In this document: positions 37,230-50,509 of the stretch, piece by piece
Layout: each line of letters opens with the position of its first letter
How positions within the stretch are numbered: the first letter of the stretch is position 1
From: an uncultured delta proteobacterium
Lineage (GTDB): Bacteria; Myxococcota_A; Polyangia; Polyangiales; B10-G4
Assembly: GCA_963727445.1 (NCBI GenBank)
Contig: CAVSGI010000020.1
Location: forward strand, 416,001-480,000
DNA: 64,000 nt
Reading direction: 5' to 3'
Program-made: the position numbers and the translations under genes
Notes under the pieces: generated by a model
The model's database searches: none
The model's input: the letters and a program-made list of their open reading frames with translations, nothing else
Told to the model about the DNA's origin: nothing

Positions 37230-40200
37230 GTGAAAGCGTCGTCTCGAGGGGCTCGGCTGGGCACGCTGCTCTTGGCACTCCCCGCGTTGGTGAGCTGTGC
37301 AACGAAGGAGTGTCCGCCGGGCGGGGCCGGCATCTTCTGTCTCGACCCGGGTCCGGTCTCCGATAGCGGCGGCACCGACACCCCGTCCTGCGTCGCGGGC
37401 GAGACATGCGACACCGGCAACTCTTGCGAAGTGGGCGCGGTCGAGTGCGTCGGCGCCGTTGCGCAGTGCGTGAGCACTGGCCTGCTACCACCGGGCACCG
37501 AATGCGGGGTTGGGCTGTCTTGCGACGATGCCGGCGACTGCTCGATCTGCACTCCGGATGTCACCTGCGACACGGGCAACCCGTGTGAGGAGGGTCGGAT
37601 CGACTGCGGTTCCGGTGGGCCTGTCTGCATTCCACGCCAGGGCCTGCCATCGGGTACGCCTTGCGGCACCTCGGGCGTTTGCTCGGGCATGGGCGTCTGC
37701 AGCGAGTGTGTCGAGGGAACGACGTGCGACACGGGTGACCCATGCACGCGTGGCGTCTTCGACTGCTCCGGTGGCGATCCCGGCGTTTGCGTCGAGTCGA
37801 CAGACCTGCCGTCCGGCACCACGTGCGGTCCGGGGCTCGCCTGCGCCACAGGCGGCACCTGCAGCTCGTGCGTCGACGGGACGACGTGCGACACGGGCAA
37901 CCCGTGTGAGAACGGGGAGACGGACTGCGACGGGGATGCGCCCGTCTGCATCACGGCGGCGGACGTCCCACCGGGGACGCCTTGTGGGACGGCGGGGAGC
38001 TGCTCGGGCGCAGGCACCTGCAGCGAGTGCATACCCGGAACGACGTGCGACACGGGCAATGCGTGCACACGCGGAATGACCGATTGCAGCGCCGGCGGTG
38101 CGGGCGTGTGCATGGAGGTCGAGGACTTCCCCGCGGGGACGCGATGCGGCGCTGGGCTCGCTTGCGATGGGACCGGCGGGTGCACCCTCTGCGTCGATGG
38201 CGACGCGTGCACGACCGGCGCCTGCGAGACGGGCACGACCCGTTGCGTGAGCGGCTCGCCGGTCTGCGAGGTGACGGGCTCTGCGGGGGTCGGTGCGATC
38301 TGCCGGCCGTCCGCCGGCGCTTGTGATCTCGCGGAGGTTTGCGACGGGTCGATGACTTGCCCCGCGGACGGATTCGCGCCCGCCGGGACCCCCTGCCCCT
38401 CTGGCGAGTGCGATGGCGCCGGGACGTGCACCTCGACCTGTACGGACGGCGCGCCGTGCTCGACGGGCAGCCCCTGTGAAGTGGGCCGTGTCGACTGTAC
38501 GAGCGGCTCGGCCGTCTGCGTCGCCGCCGGACCGGCGACGGCGGGCACCGTGTGCCGCGCGGCGGTGGACGCATGTGACGTCGAGGAGACTTGCGACGAA
38601 GTGGCGACGGCGTGTCCGCTGGACGGGTTCTCGCCGGCCGGGGCGACGTGTCCGGGCGGGTATTGCGACGGGCTCGGCGGCTGCGGTGCGTGCAGCGCCG
38701 GAGCGCCGTGCTCGACGGGAAACCCCTGCGAGCTCGGCACGACGGATTGCGGCACCGGGGCTCCGGTGTGCGTGAGCGCGGGCGCCGCACCTGCGGGAAC
38801 CAGCTGCCGTCCCAGCGCCGGAGCCTGCGACGCCGAGGAGACCTGCGATGGCGCCGGCACCGTCTGCCCGCCCGACGCGCTGCTGGCTGCTGGTACGGCC
38901 TGCCGTCCGAGCGCAGGCGTCTGTGACGCCACCGAGGTCTGCGACGGGTCGAGCCCCGCGTGCCCGGCCGATGCCCCGGCCGGCGCGGGCACCATCTGCC
39001 GCGCCGTGGTGAGCCCATGTGACGTCGCGGAGGCATGCGACGGCGTGAGCACGACGTGTCCAGGTGATGCTGTCGCGCCGATGGGTACGAGCTGCCGGGC
39101 ATCGAGCGGACCGTGCGACGCCGCCGAGACCTGCGATGGCTCGGCGCCGACGTGTCCAGCAGACGCGTTCGATCCTGCGGGCACCGTGTGCCGCCCGTCC
39201 AGCGGGAGCTGCGACCCGGCCGAGAGCTGCGATGGCGGGTCGCCGACCTGTCCGGCCGACGCGCTCGACCCCGCCGGGTTCGTCTGCCGCCCGGCGGCGG
39301 GGGAATGCGACGCGGATGAGACGTGCGACGGTGCGAGCGTGCTCTGCCCGGCCGATGCGTTTCTCGCCGCGGGCACGATGTGCTCCCTCGGGAGCTGCGA
39401 CGGGGCGGGGATGTGCACGACGTGCACGCCGGGTGCGCCGTGCTCCACAGGCAACCCCTGCGAGCTCGGCGTCACGGATTGCACGGGCGGCGTGACTACC
39501 TGCGTAGCATCGGGTCCGGCGCCCGCGGGGACATCCTGCCGGGCTGCCGCGGACCTCTGCGACGCAGAAGAGCTCTGTGACGGGGTGAGCACCGTCTGCC
39601 CGCCGAACGGTGTCGCGGCCGCCGGCACCTCGTGTCGCGCGAGCGTGAGCGCGTGTGATGCGGAGGAGGTCTGCGACGGTGTCGGCTCCGCGTGTCCGGG
39701 CGACGCCGTGAGCCCGGCTGGCACCGTCTGCCGCGCCAGCGCCGGCGCCTGCGACAGCGCGGAGGTCTGCGACGGCGTCGGCGCCGCGTGCCCGGGCGAC
39801 GCCGTGAGCCCCGCCGGGAGCGTGTGTCGCGTGAGCGCCGGGGCGTGCGACGCCGCGGAGAGCTGTGACGGGACGAGTGGCCTCTGCCCCGCGGACGTCG
39901 TGAGCCCGGCCGGCACTTCGTGTCGCGCGAGCACGGGAGCGTGCAATCCCGCGGAGACCTGTGACGGCACGAGCGGCGCTTGTCCTGCGGACTCACTGGC
40001 CGCAGCGGGGACGACCTGTCGGGCGGCTTCGGGTGAATGCGACGTGGCCGAGACCTGCGATGGCGCGAGCACGTCGTGTCCGGTGGATGGCTATCAACCG
40101 GTGGGGACGGCGTGCTCGATCGGTGTCTGCGACGGTCTCAACATGTGCATCACCTGCACCGCGGGCGCGCCGTGCTCGACGGGCAACGCCTGCGAGCTGG

Positions 40201-43200
40201 GACAGATCGACTGCTCTGGCGGCATGCCCGTGTGCGTGGCGGCGGGCTTCGTGGCGGCGGGGACGGAATGCCGGGCGTCGACAGGCCCCTGCGACGCGGC
40301 GGAGGCCTGCACGGGATCGAGCGCGACATGTCCTGCGGATGCGCTGGCGCCGGCGGGGACGACGTGCCGCGCCGCAGCGGGCAGTTGCGACGTAGCCGAG
40401 GTGTGCGACGGAGCGAGCGCGATGTGCCCGGGGGATTCGATGGCGGCGGCGGGGACGACCTGTCGGGCGAGCGCGGGCGTGTGCGATTCGGCGGAGGTCT
40501 GCGACGGGCTGAGCTCCACGTGTCCGGCGGACGTCGTCGCGTCGGCGGGGACACTGTGCCGAGCGAGCGCGGGAACCTGTGATACGGCGGAGGTCTGCAA
40601 CGGGTCGAGCGGCACCTGTCCGGCGGATGGCTTCGTGGCGGCGGGCACGTCCTGCAGGGCCAGCACCGGTATCTGCGACGTCGCCGAGACCTGCACTGGA
40701 AGTAGCGCCACGTGCCCTCCGGATGCCCTCACCGCCGCCGGGACCATCTGTCGCGCCCAGAGTGGAGAGTGCGATGCGGCGGAGACGTGTGACGGAGCGA
40801 GCGCCGCGTGCCCTGCCGACGGCTACCAGGCCGTCGGCACGGTGTGCTCGGGTGGCGTGTGCGACGGAATGAACATGTGCATCGCCTGCAGCTCGGGAGC
40901 GCCCTGCTCGACGGGCAACGCCTGCGAGATCGGCCAGATCGACTGCTCCGGCGGAGCGCCGGTTTGCGTCTCGGCCGGCCTGCGCCCGGCAGGCACCGTC
41001 TGCCGTGCGTCGACGGGCGCCTGCGATGCCGCGGAGACCTGCACGGGATCGAGCCCGGTCTGTCCCGCGGACTCCCTCTCTCCCGCGGGCACCGTCTGTC
41101 GTGCGAGCGCCGGGGCATGTGACGTAGCGGAGACGTGCAGCGGCTCGAGCGCGACCTGTCCCGCGGATTCGCTCGCCGCGGGGGGAACGGTATGCCGCGC
41201 GAGCGCCGGGGCCTGCGACGTGGCGGAGACGTGCAGCGGTTCGAGCGCGACCTGCCCCGCCGATGTCGTCTCGTCCGCTGGTACGGTGTGCCGCGCGAGC
41301 GCAGGCGTCTGCGACGTCGCCGAGACGTGCAATGGGGTGAGCGGCGCGTGTCCGGCGAACGGCTTGGTCTCGTCGGGCACGGTGTGCCGACCATTGGCGG
41401 CCGGTGGCTGCGACGTGGCGGAGACGTGCACGGGCTCGAGCGCCTCGTGCCCCGCCGACGGTTTTGCTTCGTCGGGCACGGTGTGCCGGGCGAGCGCGGG
41501 GGCGTGCGACGTGGCGGAGACGTGCGAGCGGCTCGAGCGCGACGTGTCCGGCGAACGGCTTCGTCGCGGTCGGGACGGAGTGCGGGCGAGCGCGGGGGCG
41601 TGCGACGTGGCGGAGACGTGCAACGGGTTGAGCGCGGCGTGCCCGGCCGACGCTTTTGCTTCGTCGAGGACGGAGTGCCGAGCGAGCGCGGGGGCTGTGC
41701 GACGTGGCGGAGACGTGCACCGGGTCGAGCGCGGCATGTCCCGCGAACGGCTTCGTCTCCGGTGGGACGGAGTGCCGAGCGAGCGGCGGGGTCTGCGACA
41801 TCGCGGAGACGTGCACGGGCTCGAGCGCGGCGTGTCCGGCGAACAGCTTCGTCTCGTCGGGCACGGAGTGCCGCGCTCTCGCGGCCGGCGGGTGCGACGT
41901 GGCGGAGACGTGCAACGGTTCGAGCGCGGCGTGCCCAGCGGATGCATTTGCCTCGTCTGGGACAGTGTGCCGAGCGAGCGCGGGGGCGTGCGACGTTGCG
42001 GAGACGTGCAGCGGCTCGAGCGCGACCTGTCCCGCAAACGCCTACGCATCGTCGGGCACGGTCTGCCGCGCGGCTGCGGGCAGTTGCGACGTAGCGGAGA
42101 CCTGTACGGGCTCGGCGGCCACCTGCCCCGCCAACGCCCTCGTGTCCGGCGGGACTCAGTGTCGAGCGAGCGCCGGCGTCTGCGACGTAGCGGAGTCGTG
42201 CACGGGGTCGAGCGCGCTCTGCCCCGCCAACGGCTTCGTGTCCGGCGGGACTCAGTGTCGAGCGAGCGCTGGCGTCTGCGACGTGGCGGAGTCGTGCACG
42301 GGTTCGAGCGCGGCCTGTCCCTCGAACGGATTCGTGTCTGCGGGTACCGAGTGTCGAGCGAGCGCGGGCGTCTGCGACACGGCGGAGCAGTGCACGGGCT
42401 CGAGCGCATCGTGTCCGGCGAACGCCCTGACGCCGGCGGGCACGGAGTGTCGGGCGAGCACGGGCCCTTGCGACGTCGCAGAGACTTGCACGGGCTCGAG
42501 CACGTCGTGTCCGGCGAACGGGTACGTGGCAGCGGGGACCGAGTGCCGGGCGAGCGCGGGTGTCTGTGACGTGGCGGAGACGTGCAGTGGTTCGAGCGCG
42601 ACCTGTCCCGCGAACGGGTATGTGTCAGCGGGGACCGAGTGCCGGGCGAGCGCCGGCGTCTGCGACGTGGCGGAGCAATGCACGGGCTCGAGCGCATCCT
42701 GCCCCTTCAACCGATACCTGTCCTCGGCGACGGTCTGTCGCCCCACTGGCGCGGGTACCTGCGACGTCGCCGAAACGTGCACGGGCTCGAGCGCGTCCTG
42801 CCCACCCGATGGTTGCCTGACCTCGCAGTCCTGCTCGGAGTGCGGATACTCCGGCACGCAGACCTGTGACGGCACGTGCAACTGGGCCAATTGCGGCAAC
42901 TTCAGCTTCAGCCGCTACTACGACAACGTCGAGGTTCCCTTCACCCACTCCTGCGGCTACAACTGCGGCGACGGGCTCGGCGACTGGTGCATCCTCGGGG
43001 CGCCCGGCGGCGGCTGCGATCTCATCAGCGGCGGCCCCAGCCCGAGCATCACCGCGCCCCCCGGTCGCTACCGGGCCGACTTCTACTGGGGCGACGTCGG
43101 AACCCACGACTTCTACGCCTACGTCAACGGGGTCCTCGCGGGCTCGGCGACCTACACGAACAGCTCGTCGTCCAGCTTCCCCCACGTCTACGTGAACTTC

Positions 43201-43305
43201 ACGATCGCGGCCGGGACCTGCGGCACGATCACCCTGCGCATCCGCTCTAGAGCGGGTGCGCGCATCCGTCTCTACTCCATCCGCATCGACCGCACCGGCA
43301 ATTAG
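37230..43305 (+). CDS. Giant Cys-rich repeat lipoprotein (~2,020 aa) with ~39 disintegrin-like repeats; three apparent 1-nt indels near 41526, 41583, 41696
   Basis: Lipobox LVSC. The repeat GTxCRxxxGxCDxAExCxGxSxxCPxD continues across track ORFs 37230..42569 and 41656..43305. C-terminal non-repeat beta-rich domain. Confidence 0.85.
38285..42810 (+). repeat. Coding tandem repeat, ~96-bp unit (32 aa), interrupted by a second Cys-rich unit
   Basis: Recurrent tgcgacgtggcggagacgtgc..ggctcgagcgcg..tgtccggcg with ~96-nt period. Confidence 0.9.
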
Positions 43306-43324
43306 TCGCCGGTGTAGCGCGAGC

Positions 43325-44581
43325 TCAACCGAAGGACTGACGCCGAGGCTTGCGTGAGATGCGGACCAGCGCCTCGGGCGCGGCGCGCTCGGGCTCGGGC
43401 GCGTCGTCGGCTTCCACCACGATCTCGAAGAGCCCGCAGTCGAAGGGCGTGCCGTCAGCCGGGTCGGCAGGCACCAGGCGCTCGCGCAGTCCGCGGCGCG
43501 CGTGCTCGAGGGCGCGGAAGTGACAGTAGGGGTTGTTCCCCGGTCGCCCGAAGAACGCGTGGGAGGTGAAGGAGCAGCCGCCGAGGCAGGTGTCACCGTA
43601 GACGCACTCGGCGCAGAAGCCGTGCAGGTCGTCGCGTGTTCGCGCGCGGGCGAAGCCGAGCTCGGGGGTCTCGTCCCAGATGCTGGCGATCGAACGGTCG
43701 CGCGCGTGGCCGCCCACGTAGGTCGTGGTCTGAAGCGAAGGGCAGCCCTTGATCGCGCCGTCCGACTCGATCCCCATCACGTACTTGCCCGCCTGGCATC
43801 CGGCCCAGTGGTCACCGTGCTCGGGGCGAAGTGAGCGCAGGAGCCCCTCTTCGGGGCCGAAGTAACCGAGGTTGTTGCCGGGCATCAGGAGCAGCCCTTC
43901 CTCGAGGCCGCGCTTCTTCACCGCCGCGATGCGCGGCATCAAGTCGAGCAGGTCGTAGGGTTGAAGGAGCATCTCCGGCCGATCCGCCGCGCGGCCCAGG
44001 GGCGCCGTGAGCTGTACCTGCCACGCGCGCACCCCCGCGTCGCGCAGCACCGCGTAGAGCCCTTCGAGGTCGCCCATGTTCAGGCGATTGAAGTTCGTGT
44101 TCGCACCGGCGGCCATCCCGGCCTCGCGCGCGTTCGCGAGCGCCGCGACCCCATCCCGAAACGAGCCGCGCCGGGCGCGCATCCGGTCGTGGTTGTCTTC
44201 GAGGCCGTCGAGGCTCACCGACACGCGCGTGACCCCCGCTTCCTTCATCGCGCGCGCCATCTCCTTCGTGATGCCGCGACCGCCGGTGGTGACGAGCACC
44301 CGCACGTCCGCTTCGTGAAAGGCGCGCGCCACCTCGAGGAAGCCTTCGTGCAGGTACGCCTCGCCGCCGATCAGCACCACCTCCCGCGTGCCCATCGCCA
44401 CCAGCTGGCGCACGACGTCCAGCGCCTCCGCCGCGCCGAGCTCGCTCTCACGCGCGACCCCGGCCCGAGACCCGCAGTGGGTGCAGGCGTGGTCGCAGGC
44501 GAGGGTCAGCTCCCAGACGACGTAGCGCGGGTGGTGATCGGTACCGACGACGTCGAGGCGACGGCGTGAAGGCTCGTTCAC
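43325..44581 (-). CDS. Radical SAM/SPASM peptide maturase, PlpX/splicease-like
   Basis: VWELTLACDHACTHCGSRAG (CxxxCxxC), LIGGEAYL, TTGG, AWQVQLTAPLGRAAD..LLQPY, GNNLGYFGP; SPASM CQAG..GIESDGAIKGCPSL..FCAEC..CLGGC..GNNPYCHFRAL..G.PFD.G.FE. GTG start 1 nt after the upstream stop. Confidence 0.9.
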   Translation of the reverse strand: MNEPSRRRLDVVGTDHHPRYVVWELTLACDHACTHCGSRAGVARESELGAAEALDVVRQLVAMGTREVVLIGGEAYLHEGFLEVARAFHEADVRVLVTTGGRGITKEMARAMKEAGVTRVSVSLDGLEDNHDRMRARRGSFRDGVAALANAREAGMAAGANTNFNRLNMGDLEGLYAVLRDAGVRAWQVQLTAPLGRAADRPEMLLQPYDLLDLMPRIAAVKKRGLEEGLLLMPGNNLGYFGPEEGLLRSLRPEHGDHWAGCQAGKYVMGIESDGAIKGCPSLQTTTYVGGHARDRSIASIWDETPELGFARARTRDDLHGFCAECVYGDTCLGGCSFTSHAFFGRPGNNPYCHFRALEHARRGLRERLVPADPADGTPFDCGLFEIVVEADDAPEPERAAPEALVRISRKPRRQSFG

Positions 44582-44582
44582 C

Positions 44583-44969
44583 TCAGGCGTCGGGGGCCGC
44601 GTCCGCGGCGGCGTCCCCGCTCGCTGCGTCGCCCGACGCGTCTCCGCTCGCATCGGAGGCCGCATCGGAGGCCGCATCGGCCGCGCCCGTATCCGCGGTG
44701 CCGGTGTCCGTGGTGCCCGTGTCCGCGGTGCCCGTGTCGGTTCCCATGTCCGCTCCCGAGTCGACGGGGCCAGTGTCCGGCGGCACGTAGTCGTCGGCGG
44801 CGCCGTAACAAGCGGAGAGGGTCATCGCCAGGATCCCTCCGCCCAGGGTGGCGAGGGGTCCGACCAGGCGCTTTGTAACCACCGAGGCTGACGCGCCGCA
44901 ATGCGGACAGGTCGACAGCTTGGAGGGAAGGAAGGAATCACACTGCGAACAAGAGCTGAGCTTGGCCAT
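44583..44969 (-). CDS. Small putative lipoprotein / RiPP-like substrate: Zn ribbon + lipobox-CYG + Asp-rich tail (128 aa)
   Basis: MAKLSSCSQC-x10-CPHC...ILAMTLSACYGAADDY...(DTG/DAAS)n. Confidence 0.8.
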   Translation of the reverse strand: MAKLSSCSQCDSFLPSKLSTCPHCGASASVVTKRLVGPLATLGGGILAMTLSACYGAADDYVPPDTGPVDSGADMGTDTGTADTGTTDTGTADTGAADAASDAASDASGDASGDAASGDAAADAAPDA

Positions 44970-45012
44970 CGACGGCGACCTTATCACCAACCCCGCCGCG
45001 GGCCGAAGAACC

Positions 45013-46029
45013 TCATCGCGCGGCAGCGCCACCGATTCGGAGCCCGAGGTCTCGCAGGTGCTCCCCCTCGCCGGTGAAGGGATCGATGCGGATCAGGGCC
45101 CCGTGGCAGGTGAACCCGTAGAGGAGGTCCCCAAAAGCGGCTACACCCCAGATGCACGGAAAGCCGGTATAGCCGAGGAGCCGCGCGCCGCCCCCCTCGA
45201 GGTCGACCTCGGCCAGCTGGTTGTCGCGGGTCTCGGAAGAGGCCTCGTCGGTGACGGTGACGAGCATCCGCCCATCGACGAAGGCGATGTCCCCAGAGGC
45301 GACCCAGCCCGCCGGGAGTCGCGCCACCTGCTCCCAGGCCCCGCTCATGGGGTCCATCGCGACGATGCGATCGTCCTGACCCGCCCCGAAGAGGCGTCCG
45401 CCGGGCCCTTCTTCGAGCGCCACCAGCTCGCCCGGGGAGGGGAACAGGGGGCGAACGCCCCCCAGGATGTCGTCCACCTCGAAGACCGAGTCGAAGTTCA
45501 CCCCATAGAGACGGCGGTCCGAGGCCAGCGCGATGTCGGTGAAGCGGGCGGCGAGGCGGGTGAGGCGGGTGAAATCGCCGGCGGGGAGGTCCACCTGGTA
45601 GAGGGCGTCGTTGTCGTGGATGAGAGCCTGGGCCACACATCCCCGAACGGGGTCACAGCGGTGGCTGATCGGGCAGGCCAGGTCGTCGGGCTCGAAGGCG
45701 CAACCCGTGGGCTCGACGCATGAATTGGTGGTGCAGTCGACGCCGTCGTCGCAGGCGAGGGGGCTCGTGACGCAGCCCGACATCGAGTCGCAGCGGCCGA
45801 TCTCGCAGGTGAGCCCGGTTTCACAGGCGTCGGCGAGGATCTGCTGGTGGCATCGGCCGGCCTCGCAGCGGTCCTCGGTGCAGCCCACGCCGTCTTCGCA
45901 GTCCACGTCGGCGGTGCACTCCGGCACCTCCCCGTCGGGCAGGCCGAGGGGGGCGGGGTCGACGCCGAGCCCCGACTTGCTGCCACATGCCACCCCCAAA
46001 AGGGCCAGCGCCAGGACCGTGCGTCTCAT
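45013..46029 (-). CDS. Cys-rich lipoprotein with C-terminal beta-propeller
   Basis: Lipobox LGVAC; CEDGVGCTEDRC and CDDGVDCTTNSC repeats; propeller blades FTDIAL..LYG, SGDIAF, IWGVAAFGDLLYGFT. Confidence 0.75.
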   Translation of the reverse strand: MRRTVLALALLGVACGSKSGLGVDPAPLGLPDGEVPECTADVDCEDGVGCTEDRCEAGRCHQQILADACETGLTCEIGRCDSMSGCVTSPLACDDGVDCTTNSCVEPTGCAFEPDDLACPISHRCDPVRGCVAQALIHDNDALYQVDLPAGDFTRLTRLAARFTDIALASDRRLYGVNFDSVFEVDDILGGVRPLFPSPGELVALEEGPGGRLFGAGQDDRIVAMDPMSGAWEQVARLPAGWVASGDIAFVDGRMLVTVTDEASSETRDNQLAEVDLEGGGARLLGYTGFPCIWGVAAFGDLLYGFTCHGALIRIDPFTGEGEHLRDLGLRIGGAAAR

Positions 46030-46131
46030 CGGGCACCGAGCCTACCTCCCGAGGGGCAGCCGCGCCGCTCGCATCCGAAGCAAGAAGCAGTGGAATTTGA
46101 CGTGCCTGCTTCAGCTGCCCAATTTGTAGGC

Positions 46132-47499
46132 GTGCCCCGACGTTCCACGGCCCGCTCGCTGCTCACCTTCGCGGGGGTGGCCGGGGCGGCCGTCTTCCTC
46201 TGGACCTGTGCGGGCGCCCCTCCTCGTGGGACGGATCGCCCCGCGCCCGGCCCCAGCGCCGCCTCGGACGATCCGTCCCCCTCGCCGATCGCCGCCGCCG
46301 AGGAGCCGGCCGAGCTGGCCGCCGGCCCCGCCTTCGCGCCCATCGACGACGGAGTGCCAGGCCTGAGGATCCCGATTCACGATCCCTCGGGGGTCGCCCT
46401 CGCGCACTTCTACGAAGCGCTCCGCCGCGCCGAAGCAGGCGAAGGACAAGCGAAGCTCGCGTTCTATGGCGCGAGTCACGTCGCCTCCGATCTCTTCACC
46501 GGCTACTTGCGCGATGCGCTTCAGCGACGCTTCGGCGACGCCGGTCCCGGCTTCGTGATCCCGGCGCATCCCTGGCGCTTCTATCGCAATCAGCGCTTCG
46601 ACATCGAGTCGAGCCGTCGCCTCTGGGACGGACACAAGGTGCGAGCGACGGATCCGGAGGTCCACTACTACGGCCTCGCCGGAGCCTTCGTCGAGACCTC
46701 CAGGCGCGGCGCTTTCGGTGCCATCACCACGCGCGAGCACGACGGTCTCGGCGGCAAGGTCTCCCGCTACGACCTCTATTACATGCAGCAGCCCGGCGGC
46801 GGCTCCTTCGAGGTGAAGATCGACGGCGAAGTCGTGGGCCGCGTCGACACCGACAGTGAGGACAAGGGCGCCGGCTACGCGACCTACGAAGTGGAAGACG
46901 GGGCGCATCGCTTCGAGGTGCGCACCCTCTCCGATCGTCCGGTGCGCATCTTCGGTGTCGCCGCCGACCGCGAGACGCCCGGGGTGATCCTCGACACCCT
47001 CGGCATCAACGGCGCCCGCGCTCGGTACCACCTGCAGTGGGAAGACGGGATGTACCGCGAGCATCTCGCGCGTCGGCATCCGGACCTGGTGGTGCTCGCC
47101 TACGGCACGAACGAGTCCGGCGACGACGAGGTTCCGATCACGACCTACGAGGAACGTTTGCGCCGCGTGCTGACGCGGGTCAAGGAGGTCGTGCCCGAAG
47201 CGTCCTGCCTGCTCATCGGTCCGTCGGACCGTCCTTTTCGCGAGGACGGCGACGCACTCGACCGGCCGCGCACCAGTGAGCTCGTCGATGCACAACGTCG
47301 CGTGAGCGAAGAGATGGGGTGCGGCTTCTTCGACCTCGTCGCGTTCATGGGCGGACCGCTCTCGATGGTCGATTGGGTGGAGCACGATCCGCGTTACGGC
47401 GCGCCCGATCACATCCACTACACGCGCAGAGGCTACGAAAGACTGGGCGAAGCGCTGCGCTATGCCCTCCTCTACGACTTCGAGGCGCCCAGCGAATAG
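46132..47499 (+). CDS. SGNH/GDSL-family O-acetyltransferase/esterase (PatB-like)
   Basis: FYGASHVASD, LGINGAR, AYGTNE, PDHIHYT..GY. Start approximate. Confidence 0.85.
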   Translation: MPRRSTARSLLTFAGVAGAAVFLWTCAGAPPRGTDRPAPGPSAASDDPSPSPIAAAEEPAELAAGPAFAPIDDGVPGLRIPIHDPSGVALAHFYEALRRAEAGEGQAKLAFYGASHVASDLFTGYLRDALQRRFGDAGPGFVIPAHPWRFYRNQRFDIESSRRLWDGHKVRATDPEVHYYGLAGAFVETSRRGAFGAITTREHDGLGGKVSRYDLYYMQQPGGGSFEVKIDGEVVGRVDTDSEDKGAGYATYEVEDGAHRFEVRTLSDRPVRIFGVAADRETPGVILDTLGINGARARYHLQWEDGMYREHLARRHPDLVVLAYGTNESGDDEVPITTYEERLRRVLTRVKEVVPEASCLLIGPSDRPFREDGDALDRPRTSELVDAQRRVSEEMGCGFFDLVAFMGGPLSMVDWVEHDPRYGAPDHIHYTRRGYERLGEALRYALLYDFEAPSE

Positions 47500-47570
47500 C
47501 GCCTGATTTCGGCCCTTTGGGGGCCGGGTGGCGTCGGGCTTTCGAGACGAGTAGAACCGGCCGCCGGCCG

Positions 47571-48992
47571 ATGCTGTTCAACAGCCCCGACTACGTTCTT
47601 CTGCTCATCCTCGCGGTCGCGGGCTACTGGCTTCTCGCGCATCACCGCGCGTCGCGCCTGCTCTTCATCTTCCTCGCGTCGTGTGCGTTCTACATGGCGT
47701 GGCATCCGTACTACATCGTCTTGATCCTCGGATCGACGCTGCTCGACTTCACCGCGGGTCATCAGATCCATGCAGCGACGTCTGCGCGCAAGAAGCGCGC
47801 GTGGCTCCTGGTGAGCGTCGTCGGCAACCTCGGTCTGCTCGGCACCTTCAAGTACTTCAACTTCTTCGGACGCGCGACGGCCGACGTCGTGTCGCTCTTC
47901 GGCTACGAGCTCCATCCGCCGTTCTTGGACGTGCTGCTCCCGGTGGGGATCAGCTTCTACACGTTCCAGACGATGAGCTACACCATCGACATCTACCGCG
48001 GGCGGCTCGCGCCCACGAAGAGCCTCCTCGAGTTCGCGTTCTTCGTGACCTACTTCCCGCAGCTCGTCGCCGGGCCGATCGTGCGCGCGTCCGAGTTCCT
48101 CCCTCAGCTGAAGCACACGCCCGAGCTCAGACGCGACGAGGTGGGGCGCGGCCTCTTCCTGATCGCGACCGGCATGATCAAGAAGGTCGCCATCGCAGAC
48201 TTCCTCTCGGTGAACCTCGTCGACCGCGTCTTCGAGAATCCCGAGCTCTACACCGCACCCGAAGTCGTCTTCGCCCTGTACGGCTTTACCGTCCAGATCT
48301 ATTGCGATTTCTCCGGATACACCGACGTCGCGAGGGGCTCGGCGATGCTCATGGGCCTGCGCCTCCCGCGCAACTTCGATCGCCCTTATCAGTCCGCGAG
48401 CCCCGCCGAGTTCTGGCGCACCTGGCACATGACGTTGTCGACGTGGTTGCGCGACTACCTCTACTTCCCACTCGGCGGCTCACGCGTCTCTCCACCGCGC
48501 GCGTACTTCAACTTGTTCGTCACGATGTTCTTGATCGGCATCTGGCATGGCGCGTCGTGGACGTTCGTTCTCTACGCGCTCTTGCAAGCCGGCGCGATGA
48601 TCGTGCACCGCTTCTTCCATCGTCGATCGGGTCGCGCGCGGGACGCCGTCGACCCCTGGCCGATGCGCGCTGTCAAGGTGTTCGCCTGTCTTCAGTTCGT
48701 CGTCTTCAGCCGCATACTTTTCAGGGCAACCAACATCGATAACGCTTGGGACGTGACAAGTCGCCTCTTCAGCGGTACGACATCCATGGCGCAGGTTTCG
48801 ACGACGGTGTTCATCGTCCTCGTCCTGTCGCTCGGGGCTCACTACACACCGAGGCGTTGGTTCGAAGAGATGGAACGACGCTTCATCAAGTTGCCGGCGC
48901 TCGCTCAGGGGGCTCTCCTCGGGGTGGTCGCGGGTTTCCTGGGCCTCGTCGCCACCACCGAAGTCGTCCCGTACATCTACTTTCAGTTCTGA
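47571..48992 (+). CDS. MBOAT family O-acyltransferase (AlgI/PatA-like)
   Basis: LPVGISFYTFQTMSY, FPQLVAGPIVR, QIYCDFSGYTD, FWRTWHMTLSTWLRDYLY, GIWHGA, C-terminal YIYFQF. Confidence 0.95.
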   Translation: MLFNSPDYVLLLILAVAGYWLLAHHRASRLLFIFLASCAFYMAWHPYYIVLILGSTLLDFTAGHQIHAATSARKKRAWLLVSVVGNLGLLGTFKYFNFFGRATADVVSLFGYELHPPFLDVLLPVGISFYTFQTMSYTIDIYRGRLAPTKSLLEFAFFVTYFPQLVAGPIVRASEFLPQLKHTPELRRDEVGRGLFLIATGMIKKVAIADFLSVNLVDRVFENPELYTAPEVVFALYGFTVQIYCDFSGYTDVARGSAMLMGLRLPRNFDRPYQSASPAEFWRTWHMTLSTWLRDYLYFPLGGSRVSPPRAYFNLFVTMFLIGIWHGASWTFVLYALLQAGAMIVHRFFHRRSGRARDAVDPWPMRAVKVFACLQFVVFSRILFRATNIDNAWDVTSRLFSGTTSMAQVSTTVFIVLVLSLGAHYTPRRWFEEMERRFIKLPALAQGALLGVVAGFLGLVATTEVVPYIYFQF

Positions 48993-48997
48993 GCGCA

Positions 48998-50509
48998 ATG
49001 AGCCCCGAGACCCGCGCGTCACTCATCAACCTCGCCACGGCCACGACCATCTTCCTCGCGTTCGGGGTGGCCTCGTATTTCATCCCCGAGGGCACGGTCC
49101 TCGCGGGCGTGAAGCTCGACCGCCTCAAGCCCTATACAGCCGACGACCCGCCCCCGCTCGCGGAGCTGTGGGACTATGGAAACAAGGAATTACCAGCCTT
49201 TGCGGGCGCTGGCGGCTCCTACGTCTCCCCCGAGCAGCGCTCGGCGCGGATGACCGAGAGCGTCGGCAGCGCCGTCGCCCACAACCTCGGAGAGGTGGAG
49301 GCGCCGCCCCTCGCCGAGGACGCCGAGCAGTCGCCCGCGGTGCGCATCGACCCAGCCGAGTATGCGGACCTCGCGGTCGAGATCGAGAACCCCGAAGCGC
49401 TCTCCACCTTCTTCGAAGCCCTCGAGGCGACGGCGCGTCGCGAGCCCGACGCCATCACCCGCGTCGGCCACTACGGTGACTCTTCCATCGCGACGGATCT
49501 GATCACCAGCACCGCGCGGCGGAACTTCCAGCGTCGTTTCGGGGATGCAGGCCATGGCTTCCATCTGATCTCGCGCGGGACGATGCCTTACCGTCACCGC
49601 AACGTCTTCCATCGCGCCTCGGGCGAGTGGGGGCTGCGCATGATCACCATGGGCACCGACCGTGAAGGTCAGTACGGCTACGGGGGTGTCGCGTACACGC
49701 CCCGGAGCGGCGCGCGGGCGCTCTTCGGCACCGCCGACGAGGGGAACATCGGTCTTCGGGTTTCGCACTTCGACATCTACTACCGTCAGGAGCCTCGCGG
49801 CGGCCGGCTCCGCTACCGCGTCGACGATGGGGAGTACGAGACCCTCGACACCGACGGGCAGAGCGGTGATCAGGTGCAGCGCATCGACGTGCCCGACGGG
49901 CCGCACCGCCTCGAGCTGCGCGCCGCGGGCGGCGGCCGGGTGAAGGTGTACGGGGTCGCCATGGAGCGGGAGGGGCCGGGGGTGGTCTACGACTCCCTCG
50001 GCCTGGTGGGCGCCCGCGCCCGCCGGCTCCTCAACTACGACGAGGAGCACATCGGGGCCCAGATGGCCGAGCGCGACCTCGACCTGGTGGTCCTGGGCTT
50101 CGGCGGCAACGAGGCGGACGACCCCCTCGGCCCCATCGAGAACCACTACGAGCCCGAATTCGCTGCGGTTATTCGCCGGATGCGCGGCGGACGGCGCGAC
50201 CTGGCCTGCCTGGTCTTCGGGCCGCTCGACCAGGCCTCCCGGGACGAGCACGGGCGGATCACCACCATGGAGACCATCCCCGTGATCGTCGCTGCCCAGC
50301 GCGCGGCGGCCCGGCGGGAAGGCTGTGCGTTCTTCGATACCTACCAGGCCATGGGCGGCGAGGGCGCGATGGCCGCATGGGTGCGCGCCAATCCCCGATT
50401 GGCGATGAGCGACTACCGCCACGCGACCCCCGACGGCTACCAGGTGATCGGCAACCTCTACTACAAGGCCCTGCTCAAGGCCTTCGCCGACCACCTTCGC
50501 AATCAGTAG
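48998..50509 (+). CDS. SGNH/GDSL-family O-acetyltransferase (PatB-like), N-terminal TM
   Basis: HYGDSSIATD, FGDAGHGF, GFGGNE, SDYRHATPDGY. Confidence 0.85.
   Translation: MSPETRASLINLATATTIFLAFGVASYFIPEGTVLAGVKLDRLKPYTADDPPPLAELWDYGNKELPAFAGAGGSYVSPEQRSARMTESVGSAVAHNLGEVEAPPLAEDAEQSPAVRIDPAEYADLAVEIENPEALSTFFEALEATARREPDAITRVGHYGDSSIATDLITSTARRNFQRRFGDAGHGFHLISRGTMPYRHRNVFHRASGEWGLRMITMGTDREGQYGYGGVAYTPRSGARALFGTADEGNIGLRVSHFDIYYRQEPRGGRLRYRVDDGEYETLDTDGQSGDQVQRIDVPDGPHRLELRAAGGGRVKVYGVAMEREGPGVVYDSLGLVGARARRLLNYDEEHIGAQMAERDLDLVVLGFGGNEADDPLGPIENHYEPEFAAVIRRMRGGRRDLACLVFGPLDQASRDEHGRITTMETIPVIVAAQRAAARREGCAFFDTYQAMGGEGAMAAWVRANPRLAMSDYRHATPDGYQVIGNLYYKALLKAFADHLRNQ

Follow-up and report, generated by a model that had tools for sequence, protein, structure and literature searches.

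Putative zinc-ribbon lipoprotein precursors paired with splicease-type radical SAM enzymes in Myxococcota: a predicted splice site at the lipobox cysteine

Background

Can a peptide-splicing radical enzyme act on the very residue by which a lipoprotein is fastened to the bacterial membrane? The question is raised by two adjacent genes in a 64,000-nucleotide stretch of DNA (the window: positions 416,001 to 480,000 of contig CAVSGI010000020.1, assembly GCA_963727445.1) from an uncultured delta proteobacterium of the class Polyangia, phylum Myxococcota. One of them encodes a radical S-adenosylmethionine (SAM)/SPASM enzyme resembling the spliceases, and the other a small precursor in which an N-terminal zinc ribbon is followed by a lipoprotein-type signal whose lipobox cysteine, C54, directly precedes a Tyr-Gly dipeptide (Table 1). 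Here we present evidence that these two genes form a conserved unit and argue, with slightly better than even confidence, that they specify a cytoplasmic splicease and its precursor, the product being a spliced, lipid-anchored protein with a keto-amide at its first residue.

The chemistry of spliceases has been described in several studies (PMC11626197, PMC9811515, PMC10533398). These report a loss of 135.06 Da at MYG and LYG sites and the inhibition of proteases by the resulting spliceotides (PMC11626197), and the native spliceotide products and their roles are called elusive in PMC9811515. PMC11414181 describes splicing at X-Y-G (XYG) sites, leader elements through which precursors bind their enzymes and binary systems that have no Y protein, along with structure models of known spliceases in which the XYG site lies in the barrel and an element of the leader or the Y protein on the enzyme surface. 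PlpX has been placed in the family IPR026482 (PMC11002830), and a survey of splicease types by Scott et al. (2022, Chem), as related in PMC10849128, recovered YG-rich splicease partners in 189 genera. That survey may already list myxobacterial types with such precursors; in the literature that we searched, which did not include it, no paper was found that links spliceases to lipoproteins, zinc ribbons or myxobacteria.

Results and discussion

Affinities of the radical SAM enzyme

Comparison with the NCBIfam profiles placed the enzyme nearest to two families of the splicease type, namely TIGR04103 (nif11-class peptide radical SAM maturase 3, which we take to be the same family as IPR026482), with 460.5 bits over positions 4-388 of the 412 in the profile, and TIGR03913 (GDL motif peptide-associated radical SAM/SPASM maturase), with 409.9 bits. 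The third-ranked family, TIGR04133, reached 140.2 bits against a cut-off of 425, and the heme, PqqE, mycofactocin and sactipeptide maturases scored lower still. The two best matches are both of the splicease type and about 270 bits ahead of the next family, yet both fall under their cut-offs (725 bits for TIGR04103 and 591.75 bits for TIGR03913), so that the enzyme belongs to a sister clade of the catalogued splicease families and is not an equivalog member of either. Five of its relatives behave alike, with 425-506 bits and the same splicease-type families at the top. Pfam recognises a Radical_SAM (PF04055) and a SPASM (PF13186) domain, and both the C29-x3-C33-x2-C36 motif and the seven SPASM cysteines (C262, C280, C323, C326, C332, C336 and C353) are invariant in 30 orthologues. 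A sequence-only reading of the window had assigned the enzyme to the spliceases, as opposed to heme, PqqE or other SPASM clades, and had named six motifs in its favour: the profile scores (460 and 410 bits versus at most 140) bear out the assignment, and all six motifs are present, namely WELTLACDHACTHCGSRAG, AWQVQLTAPLGRAAD, GNNLGYFGP, IKGCPSL, GNNPYCHFRAL and GTPFDCGLF. Among the PDB entries there is no splicease structure, the best match being SkfB (E 4e-18).

The precursor and its invariant ACYG site

The small protein displays a CSQC-x10-CPHC ribbon at residues 7-24, a basic pair (K33-R34), an uncharged stretch and the sequence L-S-A-C54. As it contains just two tyrosines, Y55 and Y61, the YG placed directly after C54 is its only one, in agreement with the sequence-only reading. 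Beyond a weak Pfam DZR match over the ribbon, no Pfam or NCBIfam family was found for the N-terminal module, the small protein matching 0 NCBIfam families at E<=0.01. In an alignment of 25 such modules precisely eight residues are invariant, the four ribbon cysteines and A53, C54, Y55 and G56, and conservation reaches 90% or more at G12, P22, T50 and L51.

A profile search over 5.8 billion proteins yielded 32 matches among the 8,000 candidates scored, and the ACYG tetrapeptide is found in every one of the 32. Their database names are varied: some are 'hypothetical', others are 'putative metal-binding motif-containing protein' (from Polyangiaceae and Sorangium) or 'DUF4215 domain-containing protein', and a Plesiocystis relative, whose annotation begins at an internal start, bears the UniRef name 'Lipoprotein'. 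The part that follows ACYG differs from one relative to another, comprising MopE-type metal-binding motifs (PF11617), DUF4215 (PF13948), other Cys-rich domains or acidic low-complexity tails. The combination of a lipobox-type cysteine with an immediate Tyr-Gly is not a general feature of lipoproteins in the source genome: a crude screen gave 1,398 other lipoprotein-like candidates, of which 10 have a tyrosine at +2 and 0 have C-Y-G.

A conserved pair of genes

We sampled 301 genomes of the class and found homologues of the enzyme (E<=1e-60) in 160 of them, often in 2-6 copies. The 30 best enzyme loci were then inspected over 1.5 kb on each side. At 25 of these an adjacent open reading frame (ORF), either co-oriented or divergent, has the same construction: a zinc ribbon comes first, then a basic stretch and an uncharged run, and next A-C-Y-G, in most cases as TLMACYG. 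The A53-C54-Y55-G56 site is conserved without exception in these neighbouring small proteins, as the sequence-only reading had demanded of its own proposal. Two further loci (L039 and L041) have a lipobox cysteine with the YG 5-9 residues later, and three are without an adjacent partner. One of these three (L019) starts 98 nucleotides from the end of its contig, and in the genomes of L018 and L031 an ACYG protein is encoded elsewhere, either some 4 kb off or on a different contig.

The N-terminal module showed a closely matching distribution. Its profile (A1) matches 56 of the 301 genomes at E<=1e-6, 38 at E<=1.6e-13 and 18 only at E>=2.2e-9, the weaker group being the paralogous partner types described below; enzymes of the window's clade (best E<=1e-150) are found in 41 genomes. 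With these two stricter thresholds (enzyme E<=1e-150, module E<=1.6e-13), which were set after the gaps in the scores were visible, 37 genomes have both members, 4 the enzyme alone, 1 the module alone and 259 neither, counts that overstate independence because the genomes are kin. Among the enzyme-only genomes, G283 is a case of a contig end and G173, G241 and G191 have partners that belong to the C-x-YG type; in the module-only genome (G237) the adjacent enzyme scores 2.5e-140 (L099). Some genomes encode up to three strong ACYG proteins, certain of them distant from the enzyme.

The module extends beyond the class. In a sample of the phylum it was detected (E<=1e-10) in 21 of 401 genomes, including seven outside the class, all seven with ACYG and one of them in a stretch of 42% G+C where the site reads TLTACYG. 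A splicease homologue is present in five of the seven out-of-class stretches that we fetched; of the other two, one stretch reaches the end of its contig and the other lacks a homologue over 2.5 kb.

Predicted complex of enzyme and precursor

The enzyme was modelled in complex with SAM, three 4Fe-4S clusters and precursor residues 1-65, from alignments of 30 rows for the enzyme and 25 for the precursor. The complex obtained a median score of 0.85, as against 0.00 for the best of 3 controls, and the mark that it thereby passes is attained by 116 of 157 solved complexes and 2 of 215 mismatched pairs, counts that hold only roughly here since our alignments and ligands differ from those of the calibration. 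The runs share at least 66% of their contacts, and the predicted local distance difference test (pLDDT) of the partner is at least 57. Because the PDB holds no splicease structure, the model is unlikely to have passed by recalling a solved complex. On the side of the precursor the interface is formed by residues 1-4, 10-13, 15-18 and 22-23 of the ribbon and by residues 46-61 (ILAMTLSACYGAADDY); on the side of the enzyme it involves residues 19-22 by the cluster motif, 69/71 in the GGE region, 96, 98, 121, 157-161, 185-190 and the GNN loop (231-237), together with a surface patch made up of 241-270, 327-331 and 355-359. The ribbon is thus predicted to dock on the surface of the enzyme, with residues 46-61 and the XYG site inside the barrel.

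The cysteine as a lipobox residue separable from the YG

The character of the cysteine was assessed in 77 distinct stretches running from the ribbon to CYG, using the pattern {no DERK}x6-[LIVMFWSTAG]x2-[LIVMFYSTAGCQ]-[AGS]-C, written after the PROSITE lipobox pattern. All 77 fit. Ahead of the cysteine the uncharged run spans 12-23 residues, with a median of 16; it is preceded by 12 residues of net positive charge in 74 of the 77 stretches, and in 73 the 25 residues after the cysteine are net negative, a charge pattern that fits a signal with its N-terminus inside and its C-terminus outside. Across the family the cysteine lies at residue 49-62.

Further evidence comes from relatives in which the YG has moved away. 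Within the same enzyme clade certain partners read V-P-G-C-A-Y-G or G-I-G-C-A-Y-G, and others L-A-G-C-x7-9-H-Y-G. Beyond the clade we inspected 40 loci of paralogous enzymes (about 48-54% identity), at 36 of which a partner protein has both a zinc ribbon (typically CPxCxRHVR...CPFCG) and a lipobox, for instance L-[AST]-[AG]-C-G; 32 of these 36 carry 1-6 distal x-Y-G-[AVG]-P sites, and 4 of the 40 loci are without a partner. A separate clade (L060, L066 and L070) combines L-A-A-C-Y-G with distal KKYGAPPRP sites. In a quick maximum-likelihood tree of 76 rows with SH-aLRT support, the 30 closest enzymes form one clade (support 99) and the LAACYG enzymes another (support 100), nested among the distal-YG enzymes; the separate position of the latter indicates that the fusion of the lipobox cysteine to YG arose at least twice. 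As the cysteine persists as a lipobox cysteine in relatives with a distant YG, and the pattern fits throughout, the best reading is the one already proposed from the sequence, namely that the X of this XYG site is the lipobox cysteine itself.

The enzymes themselves offer no clear determinant of this specificity. H78, G80, L108 and N163 are fixed in the 25 CYG-paired enzymes of the 30-enzyme clade (L108 being a methionine in the window), the corresponding positions are R, D, R and Q in 39-43 of 43 paralogues, and position 163 is V or T in two clade members paired with C-x-YG. However, all four lie outside the interface of the model, and in the independent LAACYG clade these positions are as in the paralogues.

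Several variants among the partners deserve record. Those with CAYG (L093-L095 and L098) and those with C-x7-9-HYG (L096, L097 and L100) constitute a natural spacing series. Three paralogue partners (L075, L059 and L064) depart from YG, their sites being a repeated ATYAGPD (Y-A-G), SFYAVRP and ACYVG. In one enzyme subclade (L047, L049, L054, L061, L065 and L069) the zinc-ribbon/lipobox partners are about 350 residues long; they combine a stalk rich in Ser and Thr with just one C/A-F-Y-G-G-C-P site, located where a Cys-rich domain begins.

Proposed mechanism and its alternatives

We propose that the zinc ribbon of the precursor docks on the enzyme and that the end of the signal peptide, with A53-C54-Y55-G56, would thread into the active-site barrel as the model predicts. 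By analogy with known spliceases, the enzyme would then excise a tyramine equivalent (C8H9NO, ~135 Da) from Y55, leaving a cysteine-derived alpha-keto-beta-amino acid. As an iron-sulfur enzyme of the cytoplasm whose target site would come to lie outside, it must act before export. Thereafter, to judge from the signal, Lgt would attach lipid to the C54 thiol, and cleavage of the A53-C54 bond by LspA would free an amine for acylation by Lnt. The ribbon and the signal peptide would together constitute a leader removed by signal peptidase II, and the mature lipid-anchored protein would present an electrophilic keto-amide on its first residue at the membrane surface. Splicing and lipidation are chemically compatible, given that the amide cut by LspA and the thiol used by Lgt both survive splicing. 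The source genome encodes 4 Lgt, 2 LspA and 2 Lnt proteins that score over their family cut-offs; one of the Lgt genes adjoins an LspA gene on contig 27.

The diversity of the cargo gives the ACYG module the look of a general anchoring or sorting device with an electrophile at the anchor. We put forward, tentatively and at rather less than even confidence, that the ribbon, signal and ACYG form a portable module, whose leader, in the manner of peptides synthesised by the ribosome and modified post-translationally (RiPPs), is removed by LspA, and which places a keto-amide at the lipid anchor of many unrelated envelope proteins of Myxococcota. In the distal-YG paralogues the placing of several sites along an acidic tether suggests inhibitors of proteases held on a tether, in keeping with the protease inhibition reported for spliceotides (PMC11626197).

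Several considerations weigh against the proposed scheme. C54 lies beyond the range of about 15-35 residues of ordinary lipoprotein signals, within which only an internal start would bring it, the zinc ribbon adding about 30 residues; moreover, TLMACYG is conserved far more tightly than a lipobox requires. An enzyme under both splicease cut-offs could have changed its chemistry, especially with a thiol beside the target tyrosine, and in the literature consulted cysteine has not been seen to be accepted as X by any characterised splicease. Lgt, LspA and Lnt may or may not accept a cysteine whose carbonyl has become a ketone. To these are to be added the kinship of the genomes and the rough hold of the calibration.

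The first two of these points also lend themselves to a different reading, which we regard as unlikely: the enzyme-substrate pair and the splicing at C-Y-G would be real, and the hydrophobic segment would be an uncleaved transmembrane anchor, with the ribbon inside, the cargo outside and the cysteine unlipidated. ACYG would then be purely a recognition motif of the splicease, positioned at the outer face of the membrane. That residues 46-61 all lie inside the predicted interface would suit such a motif, and a folded zinc ribbon ahead of a signal peptide is in itself unusual. Against this, the lipobox pattern holds in every stretch, and a [GAS]-C is kept at the end of the hydrophobic run irrespective of whether the YG is 1, 7-9 or 24-130 residues off, which is hard to explain by splice-site recognition; further, the database member annotated from its internal start was named a lipoprotein.

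A second alternative concerns the chemistry. Many SPASM enzymes form thioethers, such as the maturases of sactipeptides and ranthipeptides, and a diverged enzyme might likewise produce a Cys-Tyr or thioether cross-link, or modify a side chain, at Cys-Tyr-Gly in place of excising tyramine. The scores under both equivalog cut-offs and the residues peculiar to the CYG-paired enzymes (H78, G80, L108 and N163) agree with such a departure. However, these four residues are all outside the predicted interface, an invariant Y-G is what typifies splicease sites, A-Y-G and H-Y-G sites without an adjacent cysteine are partnered by members of this clade, and classical L/A/E-Y-G-x-P sites occur in the partners of paralogues with about 50% identity, so that we consider this departure improbable.

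We give still less credence to the notion that splicing and lipoprotein processing are alternative fates, the spliced precursor being a poor substrate of Lgt and LspA that inhibits or regulates the lipoprotein pathway, acts as a decoy in it, or remains in the cytoplasmic membrane. Such competition with Lgt and Lsp had been raised in the sequence-only reading; the keto-amide would lie one residue from the bond cut by LspA, and the genome has 4 Lgt and 2 LspA genes. Nevertheless, the diverse cargo of extracytoplasmic type (MopE motifs, DUF4215, acidic tails) favours a general anchor module over a dedicated inhibitor, and no lgt or lspA gene is found beside the locus in the window. Finally, a fortuitous adjacency, with the small ORF being no substrate or being untranslated from the zinc ribbon onward, is highly improbable: although an internal GTG (V30) could yield an ordinary lipoprotein precursor, the pair is conserved across families and classes, the four ribbon cysteines are invariant in frame and the modelled complex far outscores its best control.

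The locus and its neighbours

The minus strand of the window, whose G+C content is 66-74%, bears three co-oriented ORFs in the order 338, 128 and 418 codons (Table 1). A gap of 43 nucleotides separates 45013 from 44969; the small gene ends with a TGA at 44585-44583, and a single base precedes the GTG of the enzyme at 44581 (TGA-G-GTG). This arrangement, with C54-Y55-G56 at 44810-44802, is as the sequence-only reading described it. An in-frame ATG at 44677 is an alternative start of the enzyme, which would give a protein of 450 residues and an overlap of 95 nucleotides with the substrate gene. A consensus scan of 43100-46300 for promoters of the sigma-70 type and intrinsic terminators gave no sites, though its patterns may misfit the promoters of DNA with 70% G+C.

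Table 1. Features of the locus (coordinates refer to the window)
Feature	Coordinates	Strand	Remarks
Radical SAM/SPASM enzyme, splicease clade	43325..44581	-	418 aa from GTG at 44581; Radical_SAM and SPASM domains
Precursor (substrate) gene, 128 aa	44583..44969	-	ATG at 44969; zinc ribbon, then lipoprotein-type signal, ACYG and an acidic tail of low complexity
Zinc ribbon C7-x2-C10-x10-C21-x2-C24, predicted to dock on the enzyme	44898..44951	-	Invariant Cys; weak Pfam DZR match; contacts in the model
Signal-peptide-like segment, residues 33-53	44811..44873	-	K33 R34, uncharged run, lipobox L-S-A ahead of C54
C54-Y55-G56, lipobox Cys fused to the XYG splice motif	44802..44810	-	TGT TAC GGC; invariance; model
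Variable cargo, predicted to be extracytoplasmic, residues 57-128	44586..44801	-	Asp/Thr/Gly/Ala-rich tail
Cys-rich putative lipoprotein, 338 aa, upstream neighbour	45013..46029	-	Co-oriented; not conserved in the system

The 338-residue protein has a lipoprotein-type start (MRRTVLALALLGVAC) and a Cys-rich first third, and had been listed with the other two genes and labelled a propeller in the sequence-only reading. For the label, Pfam gave just sub-threshold matches to DUF7485 and DUF4394. A tblastn search of the splicease loci that we fetched recovered the protein at its own locus only, and 151 genomes contain one close orthologue (63% identity, in G093, a genome without a splicease match), the remaining matches being weak, partial and at unrelated places. 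A three-gene operon was accordingly rejected: the gene is absent beside the orthologues of the enzyme, and the conserved unit consists of two genes, the enzyme and the precursor.

Downstream, at 37230-43305 on the plus strand, lies a giant Cys-repeat gene with disintegrin-like Pfam matches (6e-111 and 7.7e-66), convergent with the enzyme gene and ending 20 nucleotides from its stop. Its frame breaks at about 41.3-41.7 kb, where the 1,779-residue ORF becomes Arg-rich and the repeats resume in another frame from 41656, which reflects either an assembly error within the repeats or a pseudogene. Upstream of the locus and divergent from it, at 46150-50506 on the plus strand, an MBOAT acyltransferase is encoded between two proteins of the GDSL/SGNH type, a set that looks like one for O-acylation of polysaccharide or envelope components. 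In these surroundings no link was found from either the giant gene or the MBOAT/GDSL set to the enzyme-precursor pair.

The source genome (9.47 Mb in 27 contigs, 85.6% complete) contains two splicease genes, that of the window and a copy on contig 18 with 52% identity and a distal-YG partner downstream. In the contig 18 locus (L010, G000:C18:62687-66016) the splicease occupies 183-1493 and the partner 1501-2002, with VTGC-GDD...ALYGGAP; the frame of the partner shifts in a GDGSA repeat, and ALYGGPP and PLYGAPP follow in the next frame. Altogether eight zinc-ribbon/lipobox/YG ORFs are present in the genome, that of the window being the only one of the CYG type. Six further ORFs with a zinc ribbon and lipobox (on C1, C2, C6, C21 and, twice, C10) have 1-3 distal YG sites; none stands beside either splicease gene, the C2 copy being the one whose neighbourhood was inspected, and they are probably modified in trans.

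Comparison with known systems

The closest parallel is found in the binary spliceotide systems of Rheinheimera (RhaX/RhaA, RcsX/RcsA and RasX/RasA), which likewise consist of one SPASM splicease and an adjacent X-Y-G precursor with no Y protein or RiPP recognition element (RRE), and in which the precursor binds the enzyme through an element at its N-terminus and models put the XYG in the barrel, as is predicted here. The differences lie in the precursor. Its docking element is a zinc ribbon as opposed to a leader helix, its leader ends in a lipoprotein signal with X being the lipobox cysteine, the removal of that leader would be the task of signal peptidase II, and the expected product is an anchored protein with diverse folded or disordered cargo, in contrast to a small secreted peptide. 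The type I spliceotide systems of Pleurocapsa (PlpX/PlpY/PlpA and PcpXYA) share with the present one the best-scoring family, TIGR04103, and presumably the chemistry. Unlike them, the myxobacterial system has no Y protein and no Nif11/NHLP leader, belongs to another phylum, would act on another class of substrate and scores below 725 bits.

The three-gene system of TIGR03913 is the second-best family for the enzyme, which falls under its cut-off; as NCBIfam returned 0 families for both the small protein and the 338-residue neighbour, no catalogued companion of that system is seen beside the enzyme. The catalogued, uncharacterised TIGR04133/TIGR04134 system of Bacteroidota similarly couples a SPASM enzyme to small lipoproteins, but our enzyme stays far below the TIGR04133 cut-off and its small protein has no NCBIfam match. 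With the classical lipoprotein pathway the precursor has in common the positive n-region, the uncharged h-region, the L-[SMA]-A-C lipobox and the presence of Lgt, LspA and Lnt genes; it departs from classical lipoproteins in the 30-residue zinc ribbon before the signal, the cysteine at 49-62 and the invariant Tyr-Gly at +2/+3.

The interpretation with which we started thus stands in part. The splicease affiliation, the conservation of ACYG and the identity of X with the lipobox cysteine survive, and the membership of the 338-residue protein does not. Nor is the zinc-ribbon/lipobox architecture rare, being the standard partner of a large expansion of spliceases in the class. The new element is a predicted splice site that coincides with the anchor cysteine and does not vary within a module spanning the phylum.

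Implications

Spliceotides have so far been known as small peptides made in heterologous hosts, and the products predicted here are envelope lipoproteins across a phylum. They would provide a cellular context for splicease chemistry with a clear assay, the loss of 135 Da at a defined residue of a membrane protein, and the zinc ribbon with about 16 further residues is a candidate for a compact, genetically encodable splice tag. If the proposal is correct, there would exist a lipoprotein N-terminus that is no alpha-amino acid, with attendant questions as to the specificity of Lgt, LspA, Lnt and the Lol machinery. Lipoprotein sorting could change, because the +2 residue is deleted, and, more speculatively, the anchor could be chemically labile, as the ketone acidifies the neighbouring C-H and could favour loss of the thioether-linked lipid. 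The keto-amide at the anchor could covalently capture nucleophiles at the membrane surface, and a general secretion signal would double as the leader of a RiPP.

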